Positions 5,297 through 47,024 of a stretch of 64,000 nt of DNA are shown piece by piece. The translations under genes and the position numbers were made by a program. Below the pieces are notes generated by a model. It did not search any database. It saw only the letters and a list, made by a program, of their open reading frames with translations, and was not told the origin of the DNA. The stretch lies in IMG/VR virus record IMGVR_UViG_3300028822_000274, positions 1 through 64,000 of that record, one strand, 5' to 3'. This DNA comes from a virus. The first letter of the stretch is position 1. Each line of letters starts with the position of its first letter.

Positions 5297-5439
5297 TGCG
5301 CTGCGACGCGTATATCGAGGACATCCTCGACACCGATGAGGGTTATATGCCTCCAAACAGGCAAATTTACCCCGAAAGCCAAATCTCAGGTCCGATTCGT
5401 GTGGTCTGCATGAGGGAGATGCCAAATGGTATCGAGTAA
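5296..5439 (+). CDS. 47-aa hypothetical protein (not in the ORF track)
   Basis: GAGG RBS, TGATG coupling, fills the gap to the next gene. Confidence 0.4.
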   Translation: MRCDAYIEDILDTDEGYMPPNRQIYPESQISGPIRVVCMREMPNGIE

Positions 5440-6301
5440 TTCTTGGTGGAAGGGAAAGAAGGCGTCTGAGATCAGCCTGGAACTTTACGCGGCAGTAAAG
5501 GCGGCGTTTCCCTCCCCTCAATGGATTGTCCTGGAGGAGATCTCTATCCCAGGTTCAAATGGGTCTCGCAGGGCTGACATCGTTGCTCTGTCTATTTGGG
5601 GACCCACGAGAGTCGTGGTTTGTGAGATCAAGGCTTCGAGAGCTGATTTTCTGAACGAGATTCGGGACCCAAGCAAACGTGAGCGTGGCGTCTCTTTTGG
5701 GACCGAGTTTGTTTTTGTCGTCCCTCACAACATGGTGAGGGTAGATGAGGTCCCTGAAGGCTGTGGTTTGTACGAGGTGCAGCGGAACCGAAGACTGAAG
5801 CGGACAAAATCTGGGACGCAGAAGAAGAACGTCGGTTGGACGCAAGCCGTGTTTCATAACTTCGTTCGCGCCATCGTGTATCGCAAGGATGAAGCTCACA
5901 GGGCGTTTTATGAGGCCGGGAACCAGGGAACGAAGATTTACAAGAATCTCTTCAAGGCTCTCGGCCAGGAATGGTCTTTGGAAGAGTTGTTGGACCTGAC
6001 GAAGACCCTGTATAGAGGCCTGTTATTCAAGAAGAGCGATGTTGAGCAGGCCTCGATGGATTTCAGGGCGCGTATGAATCAGGATAACGAGGTCATTCGA
6101 TTGCGAGATCTCGAAAGCACAGTCTGTGATTTGTGCGGCTATGGGATACGGACTGGACAGGATTTTGCCAGATGGTTTTCGAAAAGAGGGACTTTAGGTA
6201 ATCCAGATGACAGGAGGGATTTTTACGAGATAGAATCTGCCTACAGGGCGCTGAGCAACATTATCAAGAGAAGAAACGAACTTAAAAAAAGACGAAATTA
6301 G
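5426..6301 (+). CDS. PD-(D/E)XK nuclease, MmcB-like
   Basis: EE...RRADIVAL...CEIKASRADFLNE motif. Confidence 0.7.
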   Translation: MVSSNSWWKGKKASEISLELYAAVKAAFPSPQWIVLEEISIPGSNGSRRADIVALSIWGPTRVVVCEIKASRADFLNEIRDPSKRERGVSFGTEFVFVVPHNMVRVDEVPEGCGLYEVQRNRRLKRTKSGTQKKNVGWTQAVFHNFVRAIVYRKDEAHRAFYEAGNQGTKIYKNLFKALGQEWSLEELLDLTKTLYRGLLFKKSDVEQASMDFRARMNQDNEVIRLRDLESTVCDLCGYGIRTGQDFARWFSKRGTLGNPDDRRDFYEIESAYRALSNIIKRRNELKKRRN

Positions 6302-6310
6302 GAGTTTAAA

Positions 6311-6844
6311 ATGTCTGAAAGAATCCCTTGTCCTATTTGTGGTGAAAGCATCATGGCGTCTGCAAAAAAATGTAGATTTTGTAATGAGGACATCGAAAAG
6401 TTTGCGCGAAAACAGGAGGCACTAATAGAGCGCGACATCTTCAAAGGGAAGCTGCCGGTCATCTACGATCTTGGTCAGGTTGCAGTCATTTTGTTGCTGT
6501 CCTTGATTTTCATTGTGCCGGGTCTAATCGCTCTGTTGGTATATTGGATCAAGGCAACGACAACGCATTATCGAGTGACTACCCAACGGATTCTACTGAC
6601 GAGTGGCGTTTTTTCGCCTCGTGCTGACACCATTGAATTGTTTAGGGTCGATGATATTGGTGTCACCCGTCCATTTTTAATGCGTCCATTTGGTTATGGC
6701 TGCATTCATGTTTGGACTTCTGACCGTTCGTCAGCAGCAAAAGTAATTGTCACCAAAGAATATGATAGAATAGTAAATGATTTGCGGGGTCATTTATTTG
6801 CTTCACGAGAACAACGAAACGTCATGACACTATCAAGAGCATAG
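6311..6844 (+). CDS. Zinc-ribbon + transmembrane + bacterial PH-domain protein
   Basis: CPICGE...CRFC; hydrophobic hairpin; YRVTTQRILLTSGVFS...IELFRVDD...FGYG (bPH_2 pattern). Confidence 0.75.
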   Translation: MSERIPCPICGESIMASAKKCRFCNEDIEKFARKQEALIERDIFKGKLPVIYDLGQVAVILLLSLIFIVPGLIALLVYWIKATTTHYRVTTQRILLTSGVFSPRADTIELFRVDDIGVTRPFLMRPFGYGCIHVWTSDRSSAAKVIVTKEYDRIVNDLRGHLFASREQRNVMTLSRA

Positions 6845-8009: not shown

Positions 8010-8291
8010 ATGGCTACCCTGGAAAACTGCTGCGGAATTGAGGACTTGATGCAGGCCGATTTTTGCTCTGAGCTGAAGAAGAAGCTATTGCATCAACACT
8101 ACACCAGATATTCCGTGTTGTTCGACGGAGCGAAGTTCTTCTACTTCTGCCACAGCTTTGCCCAGGCATTGGCGGTGGCCTGCAGTAATCTCAGGCTCAA
8201 AGGGTCGTACAGGGAAGTCTGGGAAGAAGACGATTCAGTGTGTTTCGATGTCGGTGGGGCACCGATGAAAATAAAGAAGATCAAAGCGTAA
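8010..8291 (+). CDS. Hypothetical protein
   Basis: AAGGAG RBS before ATG at 8010. Confidence 0.55.
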   Translation: MATLENCCGIEDLMQADFCSELKKKLLHQHYTRYSVLFDGAKFFYFCHSFAQALAVACSNLRLKGSYREVWEEDDSVCFDVGGAPMKIKKIKA

Positions 8292-8307
8292 AACAAATAG
8301 AGGTAAA

Positions 8308-9930
8308 ATGTCTTCACGACGAACATTGGTTTCGGCTGGACCGATTCCTTCAAAACTGGACTCTGTCAAGTACATCACGAATAGATTCAAGGGCAGAACA
8401 ATAGTGGACATGGCGCACAAGCTTGCCAGCTGGAATAATATTGTTGATTTGGTTGTGTGGAAGCATTCTCCAGTCAAGCAATTCCTGGCATTCAAGTCCA
8501 TGGCTCGTGACGGTTCGATTATTCATGAGGTAGACGATGCCGTCGACTATTACGAAACCATGGAACGTCTTGCCCCAAAATATTCTGCGTTTGTCCTTGG
8601 AGCTGCGGTGGCAAACCTGATGCCGTCATATCCGTATGAAGGCAAGTTTCCATCTCACAGGTACCAGGAAGGCGAAGAGTTTGAGATCCAATTTGAAATA
8701 GCACCAAGAACAATAGACATGATAAAACACGTGAATCCACGTTGTTGCTTGATTGGCTATAAGCTTTACGACGGAACCCACGAAGAGCTTATAAAGGCAG
8801 CAAAAATTACTCTGGTTAACAGTCATGCGAATGCGATTATAGCCAATGATCCTAAAAATCTTATGGTTAAGCACGTCCTGCTTCCAGATGGCGCTACTAT
8901 TACTTTAAATGCAGGCAATAATGTTCAGCCAGCGCTTTTTATAGACGGTCTAATACGTCTTAAACACCATAAATCTGTCAGGGTTGGCTTGGACAGGGAA
9001 AGTATTTTACGGGAAAAGAACGAGCTTCCTATTTTGGTTTGCGAGCATTTCGAGAAATACATAAAGAAAGGCCATCATGGTGCCTGCGCTGTTCGTGGAA
9101 ATGGTTGCCATGTTATGACCTCACGCAATCACGAGGGCATAAGCATTGTTCTCGAAAACAACAAAATGAAGGACTGGGATAACCCGGAAATCTCTTTTGC
9201 AGGACACAAGCCGACAAAGAATGCTCCACTCTTATTTGACGAGCTAGCTAATGATTACGTTTTTGCCGTCCACCACAGACACGTAGAAAATTACGGTCTT
9301 GAGGTGTTCGGACATTCTTGTCCAGGAACAACAGAAGAGATGGAGAGCAAAAGCTCGGGGGATTACTACATAGAAAAGCACGGCACCATAGAGAAGAAAT
9401 ACCTCTACAACACAGACTGGAGCAAGTATTACGAATTGTATCCAGATAAATACTTCAAGACCCATCCATTGATGATGACAATATACGATGAAACCGAAGG
9501 GAAGGGTGTCTTGGACGTTGGGTGTAATACCATGTTCAGGAGTGAGTTTTGGCTCGATCCCAACATACACAGTGATAGGCCTGGACGTGTTACGTATGAA
9601 ACTCTTGGTAAATACGAATACATCATTCTCAACAACTCGATAAATTATCTCACAGAAGAGGAAATAGACCTTCTGATAGCCGCATTACAACCTGGTGGCA
9701 TGATGGTTGCCAATACGTTTGCCGATGCTCCGAAAAGGAAAATAACTGAGAACGAGATTGTGTATTCGACAGATACACATGTGTATCATATTTTGTGGGA
9801 TGGGCAGAGCAGGTACTACCAACACTCCTTTTATAACAGAGGGTTCAATTTCTGGCATTCGAAGAATTTCCTATCGAAGCTGTACAACAATAAGAGGTCT
9901 AGATTATTAACTATTGTGCGACCAAAATAA
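8308..9930 (+). CDS. Fusion of a CoaB-like (phosphopantothenoylcysteine synthetase/DFP) ligase, a class II aldolase-like domain and a class I SAM methyltransferase
   Basis: LVSAGPIPSKLDSVKYITNRFKG, GAAVAN, LIGYKL and IIAND follow the CoaB motifs; G-x-x-AVR, KPTKNAPLL, VHHRH, PGT and HG are aldolase II-like; VLDVGC...NSINYL...LQPGG is methyltransferase-like. Confidence 0.7.
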   Translation: MSSRRTLVSAGPIPSKLDSVKYITNRFKGRTIVDMAHKLASWNNIVDLVVWKHSPVKQFLAFKSMARDGSIIHEVDDAVDYYETMERLAPKYSAFVLGAAVANLMPSYPYEGKFPSHRYQEGEEFEIQFEIAPRTIDMIKHVNPRCCLIGYKLYDGTHEELIKAAKITLVNSHANAIIANDPKNLMVKHVLLPDGATITLNAGNNVQPALFIDGLIRLKHHKSVRVGLDRESILREKNELPILVCEHFEKYIKKGHHGACAVRGNGCHVMTSRNHEGISIVLENNKMKDWDNPEISFAGHKPTKNAPLLFDELANDYVFAVHHRHVENYGLEVFGHSCPGTTEEMESKSSGDYYIEKHGTIEKKYLYNTDWSKYYELYPDKYFKTHPLMMTIYDETEGKGVLDVGCNTMFRSEFWLDPNIHSDRPGRVTYETLGKYEYIILNNSINYLTEEEIDLLIAALQPGGMMVANTFADAPKRKITENEIVYSTDTHVYHILWDGQSRYYQHSFYNRGFNFWHSKNFLSKLYNNKRSRLLTIVRPK

Positions 9931-42932: not shown

Positions 42933-45900
42933 ATGAGCGTTTTCAGCAATTTACGCGGTGTCCTGTCAACTGCTTTTTCTCTCGGCAAAACAGATAAGAT
43001 CGAGATAGAAAACAGTTCTGGAGACTTTGTTTTAAAAACAGCAGGCTCAGAACGTGCTCGTCTAAATTCCAGTGGTGTGACAGTTACTGGTGATTCGGAT
43101 TTGTCAGCAGGGTCTGTATATAAAATAAATGGCACACAACTTGACGGTGGCGATGTAGGGCTCGGAAACGTCACCAATGACGCACAGCTAAAAAGAGCAG
43201 CAGGAGACATAAATACTTTCACGGAAAAAGGTACTCCTGTTGCTGCTGATCTCCTTCTCGTAGAAGATAGTGCTGACAGCAACAACAAAAAGAAAGTACA
43301 GATAGACAATCTTCCTGCGAGCGGATCAAAACCTATCGTTCAGACTCTGAAAGTCGGACAGGCTGGATCGGATGTAGATTACAACTCGATCAAAGACGCA
43401 GTTGATGCAGCTGTTGCAGGAGGAGCCTCTGGATCTGCCCCGTGGAGAATCGACGTGTACCCTGGAGCATACGTCGAAGACCCGATGACGGTTCCTCTTG
43501 GGGTTAATATCATATCAACAGATCAACGGGTAGACACTGTATTCGTAGTAGCTTCTGATCCCACAAATGACCTATTTACTCTTGCCGGTGGGTACATTTG
43601 TGGCCTGAATATGTCTGGAGTCACCTCTACTGGGAAGGCTCTCGTAACAGCTTCTACGGCAGGGTCCCTGAACGTCCTTCACGGAGTTTCTTTCAACAAC
43701 TGCTATTATGGAATCCACGTATCAGGCGGGGCTACGATGATTTGCACCAACGTATCCTGTTTGATCGCAAGCGCTGGCGTATCAGTTGACACAGGGATTC
43801 GTGTTACTGGGACAAGCTCTTTCTTGCTTATGTCTGGTTGTTTTTTCAGTGTACCATCAGCAGTTCTTCCTGCATATGCTTCGAATCCGATTGAAACTGC
43901 AGTTTGTATAGAAGATGCAGCTGATGCTTTTATATTAGGTGGGGTTTTTCAGGTTTCCCCTAAAAATTCTGACGCGAATGCTATTCTTGTTGATTCTGCG
44001 GCTACTTGTTTTGTGTCGAGCGGCGTTTTTGCAGGTTGCGGCAATGCAATCCATATAGGGTCGTCTGGTTCGAATACTTCTGTTGTTTCCCAGGGCAGTT
44101 CTTTCAAAGACAATTCTCTGAACACTCTCATTGATAGCAGCACAGGTACTATTTTCTGTAACGAGACTGTTGATCTTGTCCAGGATTCCCTTGTTTCAGG
44201 AGCAAAAAAACTGGGTGTAGCCCAGATTCGAGATGACGAACGAGTAGACCTCTTAGGTGATGTTCAGTACAAATTCGTAGAAACGGATAGACGAGCTGGG
44301 CTCGGTGTTTTCTTCAATGAGATGGGTGCTTCCGGTGTGTCCTCAGGTGGCATCGTGTCCATAAATTCAGGCCTCGATGTAGACGTTTCCGCTGGTACAG
44401 GATGGGTTAGGCGCAGGTCGACCTACAACGATTTGGCGTCTGTTGTCTGGAACGACGTCATAGCGCTGACGTTGACGGCAAGCAACACAAACTACGTTTA
44501 TTACAACGAGACTTCTGGTGCTGTTACAGCTTCTGTTACTCCTCCTGGGTATTCAGATTCAATTTTGTTGGCTACTGTTGTCACCGATGGATCTGGGGTT
44601 CGGTACATTCATCAAACAAGGAACTATGTAGACTCTCCTGCTGAGCAGCTGAGGGATTATCTCCTGGCTACAAGAAAGATTGCTTTGAATAGTGGTCTGG
44701 CTGTAGACGCCGGGACGACTTCGCTGAAGTTCGACGTTACGGTTGGTTCCTACTACCTGGGTCTTGACCTTATCTCGTTCGCCGGTGCTGCTGATGCCAC
44801 GTTCTCATATTTTTACGGGACAAATGGGGCGAACGAGGTCTCGTCTCAAACTGAGATCGACGACGAATACTACGACAACGCAGGTACACTGACACTCCTT
44901 ACGGCTGGGTATTTCAAGGCCGATACAGTTGTCTTGACCAGCGATGGCAGAATCAGCGTCATCTATGGCACCGAGGAATTCGCGACTCAGGAAGAAGCAG
45001 AGTCGGCGGCTGTAGCGAATACCCCTACTTTCATCGAGCACTCAGCTATTCAGTTGGCAAATATCGTCGTCGAAGACGGTGCTGGCATAGCATCTTTCGT
45101 CGACATCAGGCCTCAGCCTGGCGCTATTACAGGTGGTGGTGGAGCTGCTGGAGTCAGCAACCACGGTCTTCTCTCTGGTCTTGCTGATGACGACCATGTT
45201 CAATATCTGCTGTCTTCTGGTTCGAGGGCCATGTCAGGTTCTCTTGATATGGGCGGGAACAACATCACGAACGTTGCGAACGTAGATGGTGTCGATGTCT
45301 CAAGCCACGCTTCACGTCATGATCCTGGAGGAGCTGACTCACTCACAACTGGTACTCCCGTAACAACTCTGGTGGATGGCGCAGCGGCAGAAGGGTCTGC
45401 TGCGAGTTATGCCAGGAGCGATCACCAACACGGAATAGCGAGTGGCGTTCCCTCTTCTGTGGGAACCTCCAATTCTGCTGGTTCAGCGAGCACTGTTGCT
45501 GCCAGTGATCACGTTCATGACCATGGCGCTCAAACAGATGGGACTTTACATGCTGCAGCCACAACTGGGGTCAATGGCTTTATGTCTGCAGCAGACAAAA
45601 CAAAGCTTGATAATGCCACGGCAACACCAACGGCAGACAGGCTTGTCATTGCGGACGGATTCGGCACAGTTGATGATTGGATAACGAGTGGTGATTTAAC
45701 AGAAGCAGTCTCGTCTGTACTCACCATAAATAATGGTTCTGGGGCAGTTCTTGGCTCAGGCACGTCTATCCAAATTGCACAGGCTGGTGCAGGTCAAAGT
45801 GGCTATTTAACTTCTGTTGATTGGAATACATTTAATGATAAAATTGACGGTGGCGTTAATGTTGGCGCATTAGGTGTAGGTGTTTTCAAACAAAAAAATG

Positions 45901-47024
45901 GAACCGATCTAGAATTTTTGAACATAAATTCTGGATCGAATAAAATCACAGTTGTTGCTGATTTAAGTAACGATGAAATAGATATAGATGTAGATGAGTC
46001 TAATGTCGTCCATCAAAATCTTTCTGGGGCAGGGACAAATGATCATTCAGCCATAGACGCTCATATTGGAAACTCTAACATACACTTTACTGAAAGTTCT
46101 ATCGACCACACTAACATATCTAATATTGGGGCGAATACACACGCTCAGATTGATACACATATTGCAGACAGCACCATTCATTTCACTGAAGGGAATATTG
46201 ATCATACTGCTATTCAGAACATAGGGACAAACAGCCACGTTCAGATCGATGCTCATATTGCGAGCACAACGAACCCACACTCTGTTGACAAGACTGATGT
46301 GTCCCTCGGGAACGTCACCAACGATTCTCAGCTGAAAAGGGCGGCAAATGATTTTACAACTTTCACTGAGAAGACTTCACTCGCAGACGATGATGTAATT
46401 CTCATTGAGGACAGCGCTGACACTTACAGCAAAAAGCGGCTGAAAGCTGTAAACCTCCCGAGTGGTTCCGGTGGTGGAGGGCCTTCTACTCCAGGGACAA
46501 CGACTGATAATGCCATTGTTCGATGGGACGGGACAGACGGTTCTGCTATTCAGAACAGCGGTACAACTGTCGATGACAACGACGTCATCACTCTCAATAG
46601 CGATGGTGGTGCAGTCAAGGTTTCGACTCCAGCTAGTGATTTAAATGCAAACGGAATCATAATTTCAGGTACAGTAGACACTAACGCAACTGGTGTCGGA
46701 GCGCTGCTTTTCCTGAATACAGATGGGAACTGGGACGAAGCTCAGGCAAACTCTGCTACTACAGTTGGTCAGCTCGGCTTGGCCATGGAATCTGGTACAG
46801 GGACGAAGAAAATCCTTCTGTATGGTATTTTCAGGAAGGATGCCTGGGGTTGGTCTGTCGGACACCAAAACGGCGCTCTTTACGTGAGCGGGGCGACTGC
46901 CGGAGCCATGACGCAAACCGCCCCTAGCACTGATGGTTACCAGATTCAGAAATGCGGATACGCGATAAGCGCAGATGCGATTATGTTTGCGCCGTCGCCT
47001 GACATCGCGGAGTACGTAGCATGA
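42933..47024 (+). CDS. Long tail fibre/spike protein (1363 aa)
   Basis: Two copies of DVxLGNVTND; YNSIKDAV...PGAY beta-helix entry; His-rich repeats; DNAIVRWDG motif. Confidence 0.8.
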   Translation: MSVFSNLRGVLSTAFSLGKTDKIEIENSSGDFVLKTAGSERARLNSSGVTVTGDSDLSAGSVYKINGTQLDGGDVGLGNVTNDAQLKRAAGDINTFTEKGTPVAADLLLVEDSADSNNKKKVQIDNLPASGSKPIVQTLKVGQAGSDVDYNSIKDAVDAAVAGGASGSAPWRIDVYPGAYVEDPMTVPLGVNIISTDQRVDTVFVVASDPTNDLFTLAGGYICGLNMSGVTSTGKALVTASTAGSLNVLHGVSFNNCYYGIHVSGGATMICTNVSCLIASAGVSVDTGIRVTGTSSFLLMSGCFFSVPSAVLPAYASNPIETAVCIEDAADAFILGGVFQVSPKNSDANAILVDSAATCFVSSGVFAGCGNAIHIGSSGSNTSVVSQGSSFKDNSLNTLIDSSTGTIFCNETVDLVQDSLVSGAKKLGVAQIRDDERVDLLGDVQYKFVETDRRAGLGVFFNEMGASGVSSGGIVSINSGLDVDVSAGTGWVRRRSTYNDLASVVWNDVIALTLTASNTNYVYYNETSGAVTASVTPPGYSDSILLATVVTDGSGVRYIHQTRNYVDSPAEQLRDYLLATRKIALNSGLAVDAGTTSLKFDVTVGSYYLGLDLISFAGAADATFSYFYGTNGANEVSSQTEIDDEYYDNAGTLTLLTAGYFKADTVVLTSDGRISVIYGTEEFATQEEAESAAVANTPTFIEHSAIQLANIVVEDGAGIASFVDIRPQPGAITGGGGAAGVSNHGLLSGLADDDHVQYLLSSGSRAMSGSLDMGGNNITNVANVDGVDVSSHASRHDPGGADSLTTGTPVTTLVDGAAAEGSAASYARSDHQHGIASGVPSSVGTSNSAGSASTVAASDHVHDHGAQTDGTLHAAATTGVNGFMSAADKTKLDNATATPTADRLVIADGFGTVDDWITSGDLTEAVSSVLTINNGSGAVLGSGTSIQIAQAGAGQSGYLTSVDWNTFNDKIDGGVNVGALGVGVFKQKNGTDLEFLNINSGSNKITVVADLSNDEIDIDVDESNVVHQNLSGAGTNDHSAIDAHIGNSNIHFTESSIDHTNISNIGANTHAQIDTHIADSTIHFTEGNIDHTAIQNIGTNSHVQIDAHIASTTNPHSVDKTDVSLGNVTNDSQLKRAANDFTTFTEKTSLADDDVILIEDSADTYSKKRLKAVNLPSGSGGGGPSTPGTTTDNAIVRWDGTDGSAIQNSGTTVDDNDVITLNSDGGAVKVSTPASDLNANGIIISGTVDTNATGVGALLFLNTDGNWDEAQANSATTVGQLGLAMESGTGTKKILLYGIFRKDAWGWSVGHQNGALYVSGATAGAMTQTAPSTDGYQIQKCGYAISADAIMFAPSPDIAEYVA

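Follow-up and report, generated by a model that had tools for sequence, protein, structure and literature searches.

A phage-encoded fusion of CoaB-like, class II aldolase-like and methyltransferase-like domains and its split relatives

The fusion gene and its predicted domains

The window analysed here is a 64,000-nucleotide stretch of viral DNA (positions 1 to 64,000 of the IMG/VR record IMGVR_UViG_3300028822_000274), carried by a 104-kb contractile-tailed phage whose genome is 100% complete. Translation of the window gave a single intact plus-strand frame at 8308..9930 that encodes 540 amino acids with no internal stops. The original prediction had claimed this frame, and all of the motifs that it quoted are at the stated places in the translated protein. 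An upstream ORF ends with a stop at 8291. No tRNA genes were found in the window. A ThyX gene located 6.5 kb from the fusion gene encodes an ordinary thymidylate synthase and is interrupted by an intein. The elements of the fusion gene are as follows.

8299..8303, plus strand: Shine-Dalgarno-like AGAGG, with 4 nt between it and the ATG at 8308 (direct reading of the sequence)
8308..9930, plus strand: whole gene for the 540-aa CoaB-like, aldolase-II-like and methyltransferase-like fusion protein (P0001), stop codon included (ORF list and translation)
8308..8967, plus strand: domain 1, residues 1-220, CoaB/PPCS-like Rossmann ligase domain (Pfam PF04127, Foldseek, VIA)
8332..8394, plus strand: N-terminal nucleotide/acyl-transfer motif, residues 9-29 (SAGPIPSKLDSVKYITNRFKG) (HMM alignment to E. 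coli and M. smegmatis CoaB)
8602..8616, plus strand: AAVAN, residues 99-103, where the cation-binding Asp of the CoaB motif AAVAD is replaced by Asn103 (HMM alignment)
8641..8664, plus strand: GKFPSHRY, residues 112-119, a loop specific to the family where CoaB has its K-X-K-K triphosphate loop (alignment)
8968..9402, plus strand: domain 2, residues 221-365, predicted C-terminally truncated class II aldolase/adducin fold (folded alone; Foldseek, VIA)
9208..9228, plus strand: KPTKNAP, residues 301-307, aligned to KPSS(E/D) of class II aldolases (profile alignment to AraD 1jdi)
9268..9384, plus strand: putative metal-site motifs VHHRH (residues 321-325, with H323 and H325), PGT (339-341) and HG (358-359, with H358) (profile alignment to FucA and AraD)
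9403..9927, plus strand: domain 3, residues 366-540, predicted reduced class I SAM-methyltransferase fold (VIA; homology to stand-alone downstream genes)
9508..9561, plus strand: shortened motif I, VLDVGCN (residues 401-407, its first six letters at 401-406), followed by strand 2 with the acidic end WLDP (D417) (alignment of fused and stand-alone forms; model)
9634..9720, plus strand: catalytic-side motifs NSINYL (residues 443-448, with N446 and Y447 of I-N-Y), LQPGG (460-464) and ANTF (columns invariant in alignments)

The AF2 model of the full-length protein has a pLDDT of 91.4 and a pTM of 0.86. Taken together with the searches below, it indicates that the protein is composed of three domains, each with a matched fold, the second and third being assigned by structure prediction and by their relatives. 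AlphaFold modelling with Foldseek and VIA comparison, close to the check named in the original prediction, mapped the domains to the CoaB, class II aldolase and methyltransferase folds. The Pfam search assigned only the DFP domain (PF04127) and matched no aldolase or methyltransferase family. The folds proposed for the second and third domains were borne out by structural comparison (Z 12.1 and Z 14.1, respectively), whereas a Pfam family match for either of them is absent from this protein.

Conserved and altered sites in the three domains

The similarity of domain 1 to CoaB extends well beyond chance. Residues 2-183 match Pfam PF04127 with an E-value of 8.7e-18 (65.2 bits against a gathering cut-off of 22), the family profile matches the solved CoaB structure 2gk4 with an E-value of 2.4e-18, and the domain superposes on CoaB structures with a TM of about 0.8 in Foldseek and with Z 23.4 to 2gk4 and 22.5 to 4qji in VIA. 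It shares a Rossmann-type fold with the CoaB/PPCS enzymes, both the streptococcal monofunctional form (2gk4) and the CoaB domain of CoaBC (4qji, 6tgv, 1u7z). The HMM alignments reproduced the predicted motif-by-motif match to E. coli CoaB, in which the G-rich N-terminal motif and the AAVA, GY/F and AN motifs are retained, the last two as IGYKL (residues 149-153) and IIAND (177-181). N25 aligns with E. coli N210 (M. smegmatis N211) and K113 with E. coli K289, both being 98-100% conserved among the 123 long and short sequences of the family. In E. coli CoaB, N210 is needed for the second half-reaction and K289 is the lysine of the first. The N210D variant of that enzyme was crystallised with 4'-phosphopantothenoyl-CMP (1u7z), and its Asp can be seen in the alignment. 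To our knowledge, CoaB carries out one reaction only.

The remaining parts of the CoaB site are rebuilt in this family. In the M. smegmatis (Msm) enzyme, N211 is among the active-site residues, D281 (the Asp of AAVAD) coordinates a cation with the CTP triphosphate, and R207 (E. coli R206), an Arg conserved from bacteria to human, has been proposed to position the cysteine (PMC7794376). Three elements of CoaB, namely R207, D281 and the K-X-K-K loop, are replaced here by other invariant residues. In the HMM alignment, K21 stands in place of the cysteine-positioning Arg, and it is invariant across the 123 sequences together with D18, N25 and G29 of the N-terminal motif. Asn103 replaces the Asp in 100% of the same sequences. 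The triphosphate loop reads GKFPSHxY and retains a single Lys, with K113, F114, S116 and H117 invariant. NCBIfam CoaB equivalog models gave 52.3 (TIGR02114), 51.9 (NF005231) and 45 bits (TIGR00521) against cut-offs of 217.2, 265 and 219.7, respectively. Judging from these replacements and scores (at best 52 bits against 217-265), domain 1 is not a canonical CoaB, as had been anticipated from the altered substrate loop. The substitution of Asn for the cation-binding Asp might impair its nucleotide chemistry.

Domain 2, when folded alone, gave a pLDDT of 85.9, and every top Foldseek match against the PDB belongs to the class II aldolase superfamily (best E-value 2.9e-4), with YgbL/OtnC in first place. 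According to VIA, it has Z 12.1 to DrdA 6btd (rmsd 2.2 A over 122 residues) and 11.6 to FucA, superposing on class II aldolases with an rmsd of 2.0-2.2 A over about 122 residues, and it covers only residues 1-166 of the approximately 206-residue fold, the last 40 or so being absent. PF00596 did not match this protein at E-values up to 10. Within the family, one member (P0188) reaches 20.1 bits against the cut-off of 22.2, three members bear a precomputed PF00596 label, and one Atlas cluster bears both PF00596 and PF04127. This superfamily includes the aldolases FucA and DrdA (5-deoxyribulose-1-phosphate aldolase), the epimerase AraD, the dehydratase MtnB and the decarboxylase YgbL/OtnC, as well as the iron oxygenases NovR, TqaM and pyruvic oxime dioxygenase.

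The histidines H323, H325 and H358, invariant in the 123 sequences, line up with the HxH and HG motifs found in FucA, AraD and YgbL, in profile alignments that are individually weak (E-values 0.14-0.57). In FucA, the zinc-ligand histidines are H92, H94 and H155. The PGT, GxxxxR and K-x-(S/T) segments fall into register with FucA and AraD in the same weak alignments. In the profile alignment, the acidic metal ligand or catalytic residue of class II aldolases, a fourth ligand (E73 in FucA and D76 in AraD), is replaced by Asn305, which is present in 97% of the family. Further differences from the known enzymes are the truncation, the placement of the domain between two other enzymes, and R273, which is invariant in the 123 sequences and lies in the phosphate-binding turn. 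Because the last 40 or so residues and the acidic ligand are missing, domain 2 could serve as a binding domain rather than a catalyst.

Domain 3 gave Z 14.1 to CypM 7wzg in VIA (170 residues aligned, model residues 369-539) and 13.1 to both CgnL and 3d2l. Its structural neighbours are mostly small-molecule or peptide N-methyltransferases, such as CypM, CgnL, CcbJ, GSMT, DesVI and GNMT. Homologues of it stand as separate genes downstream in the short-form loci, and two of these genes (L012 and L014) pass Pfam methyltransferase cut-offs, the former with 39 bits for Methyltransf_23 against 27. All fused members score below the thresholds of the Pfam methyltransferase families (best E-value 0.003), and this protein gives no match to them. 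The core fold and the C-terminal beta sub-domain are shared with class I methyltransferases (CypM 7wzg, CgnL 7pd7, 3d2l, CcbJ, GSMT, DesVI and GNMT; Methyltransf_23/25/11) at Z 14.1-12 over about 170 residues, and so are the acidic residue of strand 2 and the post-strand-4 and GG motifs. The domain differs from them in its length of about 175 residues versus 240, in the shortening of GxGxG to G-C/G-N, and in the loss of a helix and the strand-3 region.

In the model, the usual GxGxG loop and the helix after it are absent, no helix being present between the strands at 401-404 and 414-416. The alignment places this change in the whole fused lineage, where motif I reads G-[GC]-N and where both the next helix and the strand-3 region have been deleted. 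The acidic residue that ends strand 2 of the methyltransferase fold typically binds the SAM ribose. Its counterpart here, D417, shows at least 90% conservation among the fused forms and lines up with an Asp/Glu in the stand-alone ones. The NSINYL, LQPGG and ANTF motifs are retained in both fused and split forms. Since the SAM-binding motif is shortened, the activity of domain 3 is not assured in the fused lineage, and methyl transfer might have been lost there with the deletion of the SAM-binding loop and the following helix.

Split forms, carriers and evolutionary history

The family is small, with 233 representatives, among them about 39 full-length homologues that are 32-53% identical to the fusion protein. 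Among 16 viral loci, mostly from huge phages, 15 encode domains 1 and 2 as one gene and domain 3 as a separate one, which abuts or overlaps downstream in 14 loci and lies about 1.2 kb downstream in the remaining one (L013). Fully fused forms are found in locus L001 and in the window. Because domain 3 is a separate, generally abutting gene in the 15 viral loci, what the window carries is a conserved module in its fully fused state. In huge phages and CPR/DPANN genomes, the split two-gene form (L002-L016, L021) shows orthology across each of the three domains, which follow the same order and keep the same invariant residues. It differs from the form described here, which is one polypeptide with a reduced-type methyltransferase in a 104-kb phage, as compared with phages of 200-550 kb. 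The three parts form one evolutionary unit, obligately linked as one or two genes. The long forms fall into one clade in 39 of 40 cases (support 0.997), which suggests that the fusion originated essentially once. A single locus, L002, possesses the reduced-type methyltransferase as a separate gene.

Strong constraint over the 123 long and short forms is seen in domain 1 at D18, K21, N25, N103, K113, S116, H117, R134, K152 and N180, and in domain 2 at R273, K301, N305, H323, H325 and H358. No architectures longer than the three-domain fusion were found in the family search. Over-length members are few and have no informative extra domain, with the exception of a chimera (P0183) that has a CoaC-type flavoprotein N-terminus. 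A survey of 150 neighbours within 5 kb of 18 loci revealed no independent recurrent neighbour other than the methyltransferase, all recurrent Pfam families being derived from one syntenic lineage. The lack of a consistently linked gene fits substrates that are already supplied by every host.

No nucleotide match turned up in the phage collection, and the protein search there returned five records only, namely uncultured huge phages plus a CoaB-only match in Methanothermobacter phage psiM100. BFVD contains no viral structure with the three-domain architecture, no usable match came from a feature search of the ESM Atlas, and none of the PADLOC defence models matched the fusion protein. We found no description of this family in the literature. 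For the copy from Oscillospiraceae (L018), a prophage check gave matches only to PHROGs of unknown function.

The genomic context of the module differs from that of CoaB. Whereas CoaB is partnered by an N-terminal CoaC flavoprotein, the CoaB-like domain of the fusion is partnered by a C-terminal aldolase-like domain and is always linked to a methyltransferase, and the module occurs in phages and in genomes without the rest of the CoA pathway. As proposed, no CoaC scored above the cut-off in this complete phage, and neither did CoaE or the NAD genes (NadE, NAPRTase-family). The module provides the sole PF04127 match of the CPR, DPANN and small-genome carriers, and no CoaC or CoaE was found in them, these carriers being incomplete MAGs in which absence is not proof. 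One carrier genome has an ordinary coaBC besides the module. The three parts, which are found together in both giant phages and ultra-small microbes, do not resemble a pathway for coenzyme A.

Proposed activity and alternative explanations

With moderate confidence, we propose that the protein is a self-contained, single-chain module of three enzymes that acts on a common cellular small molecule outside coenzyme A synthesis. In the first step, the CoaB-like domain would use an NTP and a carboxylate to form an acyl-nucleotide and would then transfer the acyl moiety to an amine or some other nucleophile that is not cysteine. We infer this step because the counterparts of N210 and K289 are retained and the Arg with a proposed role in placing cysteine is replaced. 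In the second step, the aldolase-like domain, with three histidines for a divalent metal and Asn for the carboxylate ligand, may perform a lyase, decarboxylase, dehydratase or oxygenase-type reaction at a portion of the same molecule that bears a phosphate or a carboxylate. Finally, the methyltransferase-like domain would methylate the product of the earlier steps, most likely on nitrogen. The original prediction had suggested that the end product may be a modified nucleotide, a cofactor or a signal.

The last step is the one questioned by a somewhat doubtful alternative, in which the fused lineage retains two enzymes and a pseudo-enzyme, domain 3 having lost SAM binding to become a lid or a substrate-binding scaffold. 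The change of GxGxG to G-[GC]-N, the deletion of the next helix and the strand-3 region, and the sub-threshold Pfam scores of the fused members all point in this direction. However, D417 is kept, the motif IV N-Y and the GG, NTF, P, E and H positions are shared with the canonical stand-alone partners, and domain 3 is conserved as much as domains 1 and 2. In addition, the separate gene for the reduced type in L002 shows that this type of methyltransferase is kept for its own sake.

An unlikely explanation is that the module decorates DNA, tRNA/rRNA or protein rather than a small molecule, for example by attaching an amide-linked group to a carboxylated base and then methylating it. The phage setting and the self-contained nature of the module, which lacks linked biosynthetic genes, would agree with such a role, and huge phages and CPR/DPANN organisms are rich in translation-related genes. 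The stand-alone methyltransferases also score on the RsmD-like Cons_hypoth95, FtsJ and PrmA models and match the MADS mad2 model of PADLOC, the latter being a generic match only, and the invariant (V/I)-N-Y of motif IV bears a loose resemblance to amino-methyltransferase motifs. On the other hand, the fusion protein has no nucleic-acid-binding domain, the closest structures to domain 3 are small-molecule or peptide methyltransferases, and no base-hydroxymethylase, DpdA or similar gene is recurrent within 5 kb of the 18 surveyed loci. The window has no tRNA genes and its ThyX is ordinary; nothing in the analysis points toward DNA modification. For the CoaB and class II aldolase families, we know of action on small phosphorylated metabolites only.

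A function linked to NAD appears very unlikely. It would involve the modification of a pyridine nucleotide precursor, such as the carboxylate of nicotinate mononucleotide, as a means of counter-defence or of supplying the phage with NAD. In three loci (L007, L014 and L016), the module is flanked by genes for NAPRTase and NAD synthase. Single neighbouring genes of the survey encode an NAD-dependent ligase, Tpt1 and Macro proteins. Being syntenic with one another, L007, L014 and L016 represent a single lineage, and the other 15 loci have no NAD genes within 5 kb. The complete phage described here has neither NadE nor a NAPRTase-family gene, and the papers on viral NAD systems that we examined do not mention such a protein.

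Least credible of all is a non-canonical route to 4'-phosphopantetheine or CoA, in which phosphopantothenate is ligated to cysteine and the aldolase-like domain replaces CoaC as the decarboxylase: the CoaB fold with its N210 and K289 equivalents, the position of domain 2 where the CoaB partner is expected, the decarboxylases of the class II aldolase superfamily (e.g., YgbL/OtnC, the top Foldseek match) and the sole PF04127 match in CPR, DPANN and small-genome carriers would suit it, but the cysteine-positioning residue, the cation Asp and K-X-K-K are all replaced, the equivalog models score at a quarter of their cut-offs, CoA synthesis leaves no role for a dedicated methyltransferase, an ordinary coaBC accompanies the module in one carrier genome, and no enzyme would act next on the product in the CPR, DPANN and small-genome carriers, because CoaE and CoaC were not found in these MAGs.

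Returning to the favoured three-enzyme module, we suggest more tentatively that it converts common host precursors into a new methylated, amide-linked metabolite or cofactor analogue, the ligase derived from CoaB having acquired another nucleophile specificity and the aldolase fold providing a metal centre of three His, and that huge phages, this 104-kb phage and ultra-small symbionts may use this product to rewire or exploit their hosts. If true, this reading would add a branch to CoaB chemistry, and its product would be new as well. The single-chain form described here is the most convenient version for expression and assay. The family is a tightly conserved offshoot of CoaB in which the cysteine, cation and triphosphate sites are all rebuilt and which is permanently joined to two other enzymes, and its carriers are phages and organisms with minimal metabolism. 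Identification of its product would reveal an enzymatic role new to the CoaB fold, perhaps together with a new metabolite by which phages and episymbionts act on their hosts.

The fused gene and its surroundings

The predicted three-enzyme fusion P0001 is encoded by one unbroken ORF of 540 codons, preceded by a ribosome-binding site (AGAGG) that ends 5 nt before the ATG; the upstream ORF stops at 8291. The source virus is a single record of 103,713 bp with 100% completeness (CheckV), the first 64 kb of which form the window. It is a contractile-tailed phage, with terminase, portal, major capsid, sheath, tape measure and baseplate genes located downstream of the target gene, which itself sits in an upstream region made up of small genes, most of them without annotation. 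The features discussed here are as follows.

5426-6301, + strand: MmcB-like nuclease-fold protein (PF06319, 24.2 bits)
6311-6844, + strand: bacterial PH-domain protein (bPH_2, E 9.5e-14)
8308-9930, + strand: target gene, P0001
16465-18099, + strand: flavin-dependent thymidylate synthase ThyX, 544 aa, with an intein inside (PF02511, E 1.4e-37)
42933-47024, + strand: large ORF of the tail-gene region, 1363 aa
56043-58274, + strand: large ORF of the tail-gene region, 743 aa

The Cys-rich N-terminus of the PH-domain protein looks, by eye from the translation, like a zinc ribbon. The ThyX intein matches Intein_splicing (E 6.7e-13) and contains a homing endonuclease of HNH type (HNH, E 9.5e-5), and neither large tail-region ORF has a PHROG match at E<=0.001. 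Within positions 1-64000, the long ORFs are nearly all on the + strand and GC skew is positive in each 2-kb bin, so that the cumulative skew climbs steadily; both features fit a single direction of transcription or replication across the window.

Folds and conserved sites of the three domains

The whole-chain AlphaFold2 model of P0001, built from an alignment of 39 homologues, is confident (pLDDT 91.4, pTM 0.86). Residues 1-220 constitute a CoaB (phosphopantothenate-cysteine ligase) domain, as supported by Pfam DFP (E 8.7e-18), by the family profile against streptococcal CoaB 2gk4 (E 2.4e-18), and by comparison with solved CoaB structures (Foldseek TM ~0.8; structural alignment Z 23.4 and 22.5). 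Residues 366-540 adopt the class I methyltransferase fold, with Z 14.1 against CypM and Z 12-13 against a series of small-molecule and peptide N-methyltransferases. Because the whole-chain structure search barely sampled the middle region, this domain was modelled separately from a 16-sequence alignment built by reference (pLDDT 85.9). Its leading Foldseek matches in the PDB are all class II aldolase/adducin proteins (YgbL, FucA, DrdA, AraD, MtnB/APIP, NovR, TqaM and pyruvic oxime dioxygenase). The best structural alignment (Z 12.1, rmsd 2.0-2.2 A, ~122 residues) spans only residues 1-166 of these ~206-residue enzymes, and the fold is therefore C-terminally truncated. Thus, the originally predicted fusion was borne out: its motifs were all located where predicted, the reading frame is intact, and structure prediction with structural alignment supports each of the three proposed folds. 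The fusion is a new variant assembled from known enzyme folds.

In HMM alignments to the E. coli and M. smegmatis (Msm) CoaB proteins, N25 of P0001 is the retained equivalent of E. coli N210, the Asn of the second half-reaction, and K113 is the retained first Lys of the K-X-K-K loop. Other positions of the site are changed, as the original prediction had claimed. Lys21 occupies the place of Msm R207, the Arg proposed for positioning cysteine, and Asn103 that of D281, the Asp holding the cation on the CTP triphosphate (PMC7794376), while the remainder of the loop beyond its first Lys is rebuilt as GKFPSHxY. Conservation at K21, N25, N103, K113, F114, S116 and H117 reaches 98-100% in a set of 123 family members, long and short forms alike; judging by this, the replacements are not decay. 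A short-form subgroup (P0179, P0195, P0202, P0221, P0226 and P0229) has a 25-35-residue insertion directly before the invariant GKFPSH loop.

At E<10, the middle-domain profile reached five PDB sequences, all of them class II aldolases, in matches that are individually weak (E 0.14-0.57) and consistent in register. In these weak alignments, IVHxH corresponds to the two-His metal motif, HG to the third metal His, PGT to the FGT of FucA, and KATLN to KPSS(D/E). Given the consistent register, the three putative metal histidines H323, H325 and H358 appear to be kept, and they are invariant. By the same weak alignments, Asn305, present in 97% of the family, replaces the carboxylate that serves as metal ligand and catalytic residue in aldolases.

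Relative to stand-alone orthologues, motif I in the third domain of the fused forms is shortened (VLDVGCN versus LDLCxGxGxL), and both the following helix, which is also absent from the P0001 model, and the strand-3 region are missing. The domain retains D417, the acidic residue closing strand 2, together with invariant (V/I)-N-Y, GG, NTF, P, E and H positions. That this trimmed domain is a pseudo-enzyme, a question separate from the substrate, is possible but doubtful.

Distribution and origin of the module

A word-indexed search yielded 110 relatives in two length classes, ~40 full-length proteins of 525-580 aa and ~70 proteins near 365 aa with the first two domains only. In a tree of the shared region, 39 of 40 long forms make up one clade (support 0.997), which indicates that the fusion arose essentially once; the window protein falls on a divergent branch with P0002-P0005. 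Among 16 viral loci, mostly on contigs of 200-550 kb, one (L001) is fused as in the window and 15 are short-form. An ORF of ~210-264 aa abuts or overlaps the short form downstream in 14 of these 15, and in L013 the corresponding ORF lies ~1.2 kb further on. These downstream ORFs share one similarity cluster, joined via the fused proteins, and of six that were scanned, those of L012 and L014 exceed Pfam SAM-methyltransferase gathering scores. The three parts evolve as one unit.

The family, although real, is rare: of 1.84 billion representatives searched exhaustively with its profile, only 233 match at E<=1e-30. Among species-representative genomes, the module occurs in gut Firmicutes MAGs, one small Gammaproteobacteria MAG, one Yanofskybacteria (CPR) genome and one Woesearchaeota genome. 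A literature search found no description of the fusion family, none of the catalogued viral structures matched its architecture, and the protein itself matches no defence model. No architecture larger than the three-domain fusion was found within the family, and over-length members offered nothing informative apart from P0183. The first ~150 residues of this representative are a CoaC/HFCD-type flavoprotein domain (PF02441, E 9.5e-27) ending with an ACG..G.G-like motif, followed directly by KFPSHNY and the remaining module; the N-terminal half of the CoaB-like domain is missing. P0183 may represent a chimera that exists in nature or a product of misassembly.

Possible function of the module

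Housekeeping CoaB identity was rejected on several grounds: scores are about one quarter of the NCBIfam equivalog cut-offs, three of the residues or loops defining CoaB chemistry are replaced, and the complete phage lacks both CoaC, in agreement with the original prediction, and CoaE. Neither enzyme was found in the CPR, DPANN and small-genome carriers, although these are MAGs and may be incomplete, and an Erysipelotrichaceae MAG has the module together with a normal coaBC.

The neighbourhood survey proposed earlier identified the methyltransferase as the sole constant partner; supply genes do not travel with the module, which makes common metabolites of the cell the probable substrates. On balance, we lean towards a three-step tailoring enzyme. 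In the proposed order, the first domain would use NTP to activate a carboxylate and transfer it to a non-cysteine nucleophile; the second may catalyse a divalent-metal reaction at the three-His/Asn site, with a lyase, a decarboxylase, a dehydratase or an oxygenase as candidate activities; and the third would methylate the product, probably on nitrogen given its structural neighbours. The pairing of a ligase with a second enzyme echoes the logic of CoaB-CoaC, but the second enzyme differs and the domain order is opposite. The earlier interpretation, a repurposed pathway for a modified nucleotide, cofactor or signal rather than CoA, was upheld in part: the domain layout, the altered ligase site and the missing CoaC are supported.

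A nucleic acid or protein substrate seems unlikely. An NAD-related substrate, a sub-case of the three-step reading, is less likely still: NAPRTase-family and NadE (NAD synthase) genes flank the module (~3-4 kb upstream, 0.2-0.7 kb downstream) in the huge-phage loci L007, L014 and L016 only; these loci are mutually syntenic, and neither gene was found in the complete source phage, leaving a weak link to NAD salvage. In the same three loci, a conserved ~180-aa ORF with no family assigned adjoins the module upstream. A non-canonical CoA route is the least probable of these readings.

The window adds to the family a fully fused form of single origin with a reduced methyltransferase type, in a complete 104-kb myovirus-like phage without NAD genes. 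The fusion is moderately interesting and, because all three parts are on a single chain, readily testable.
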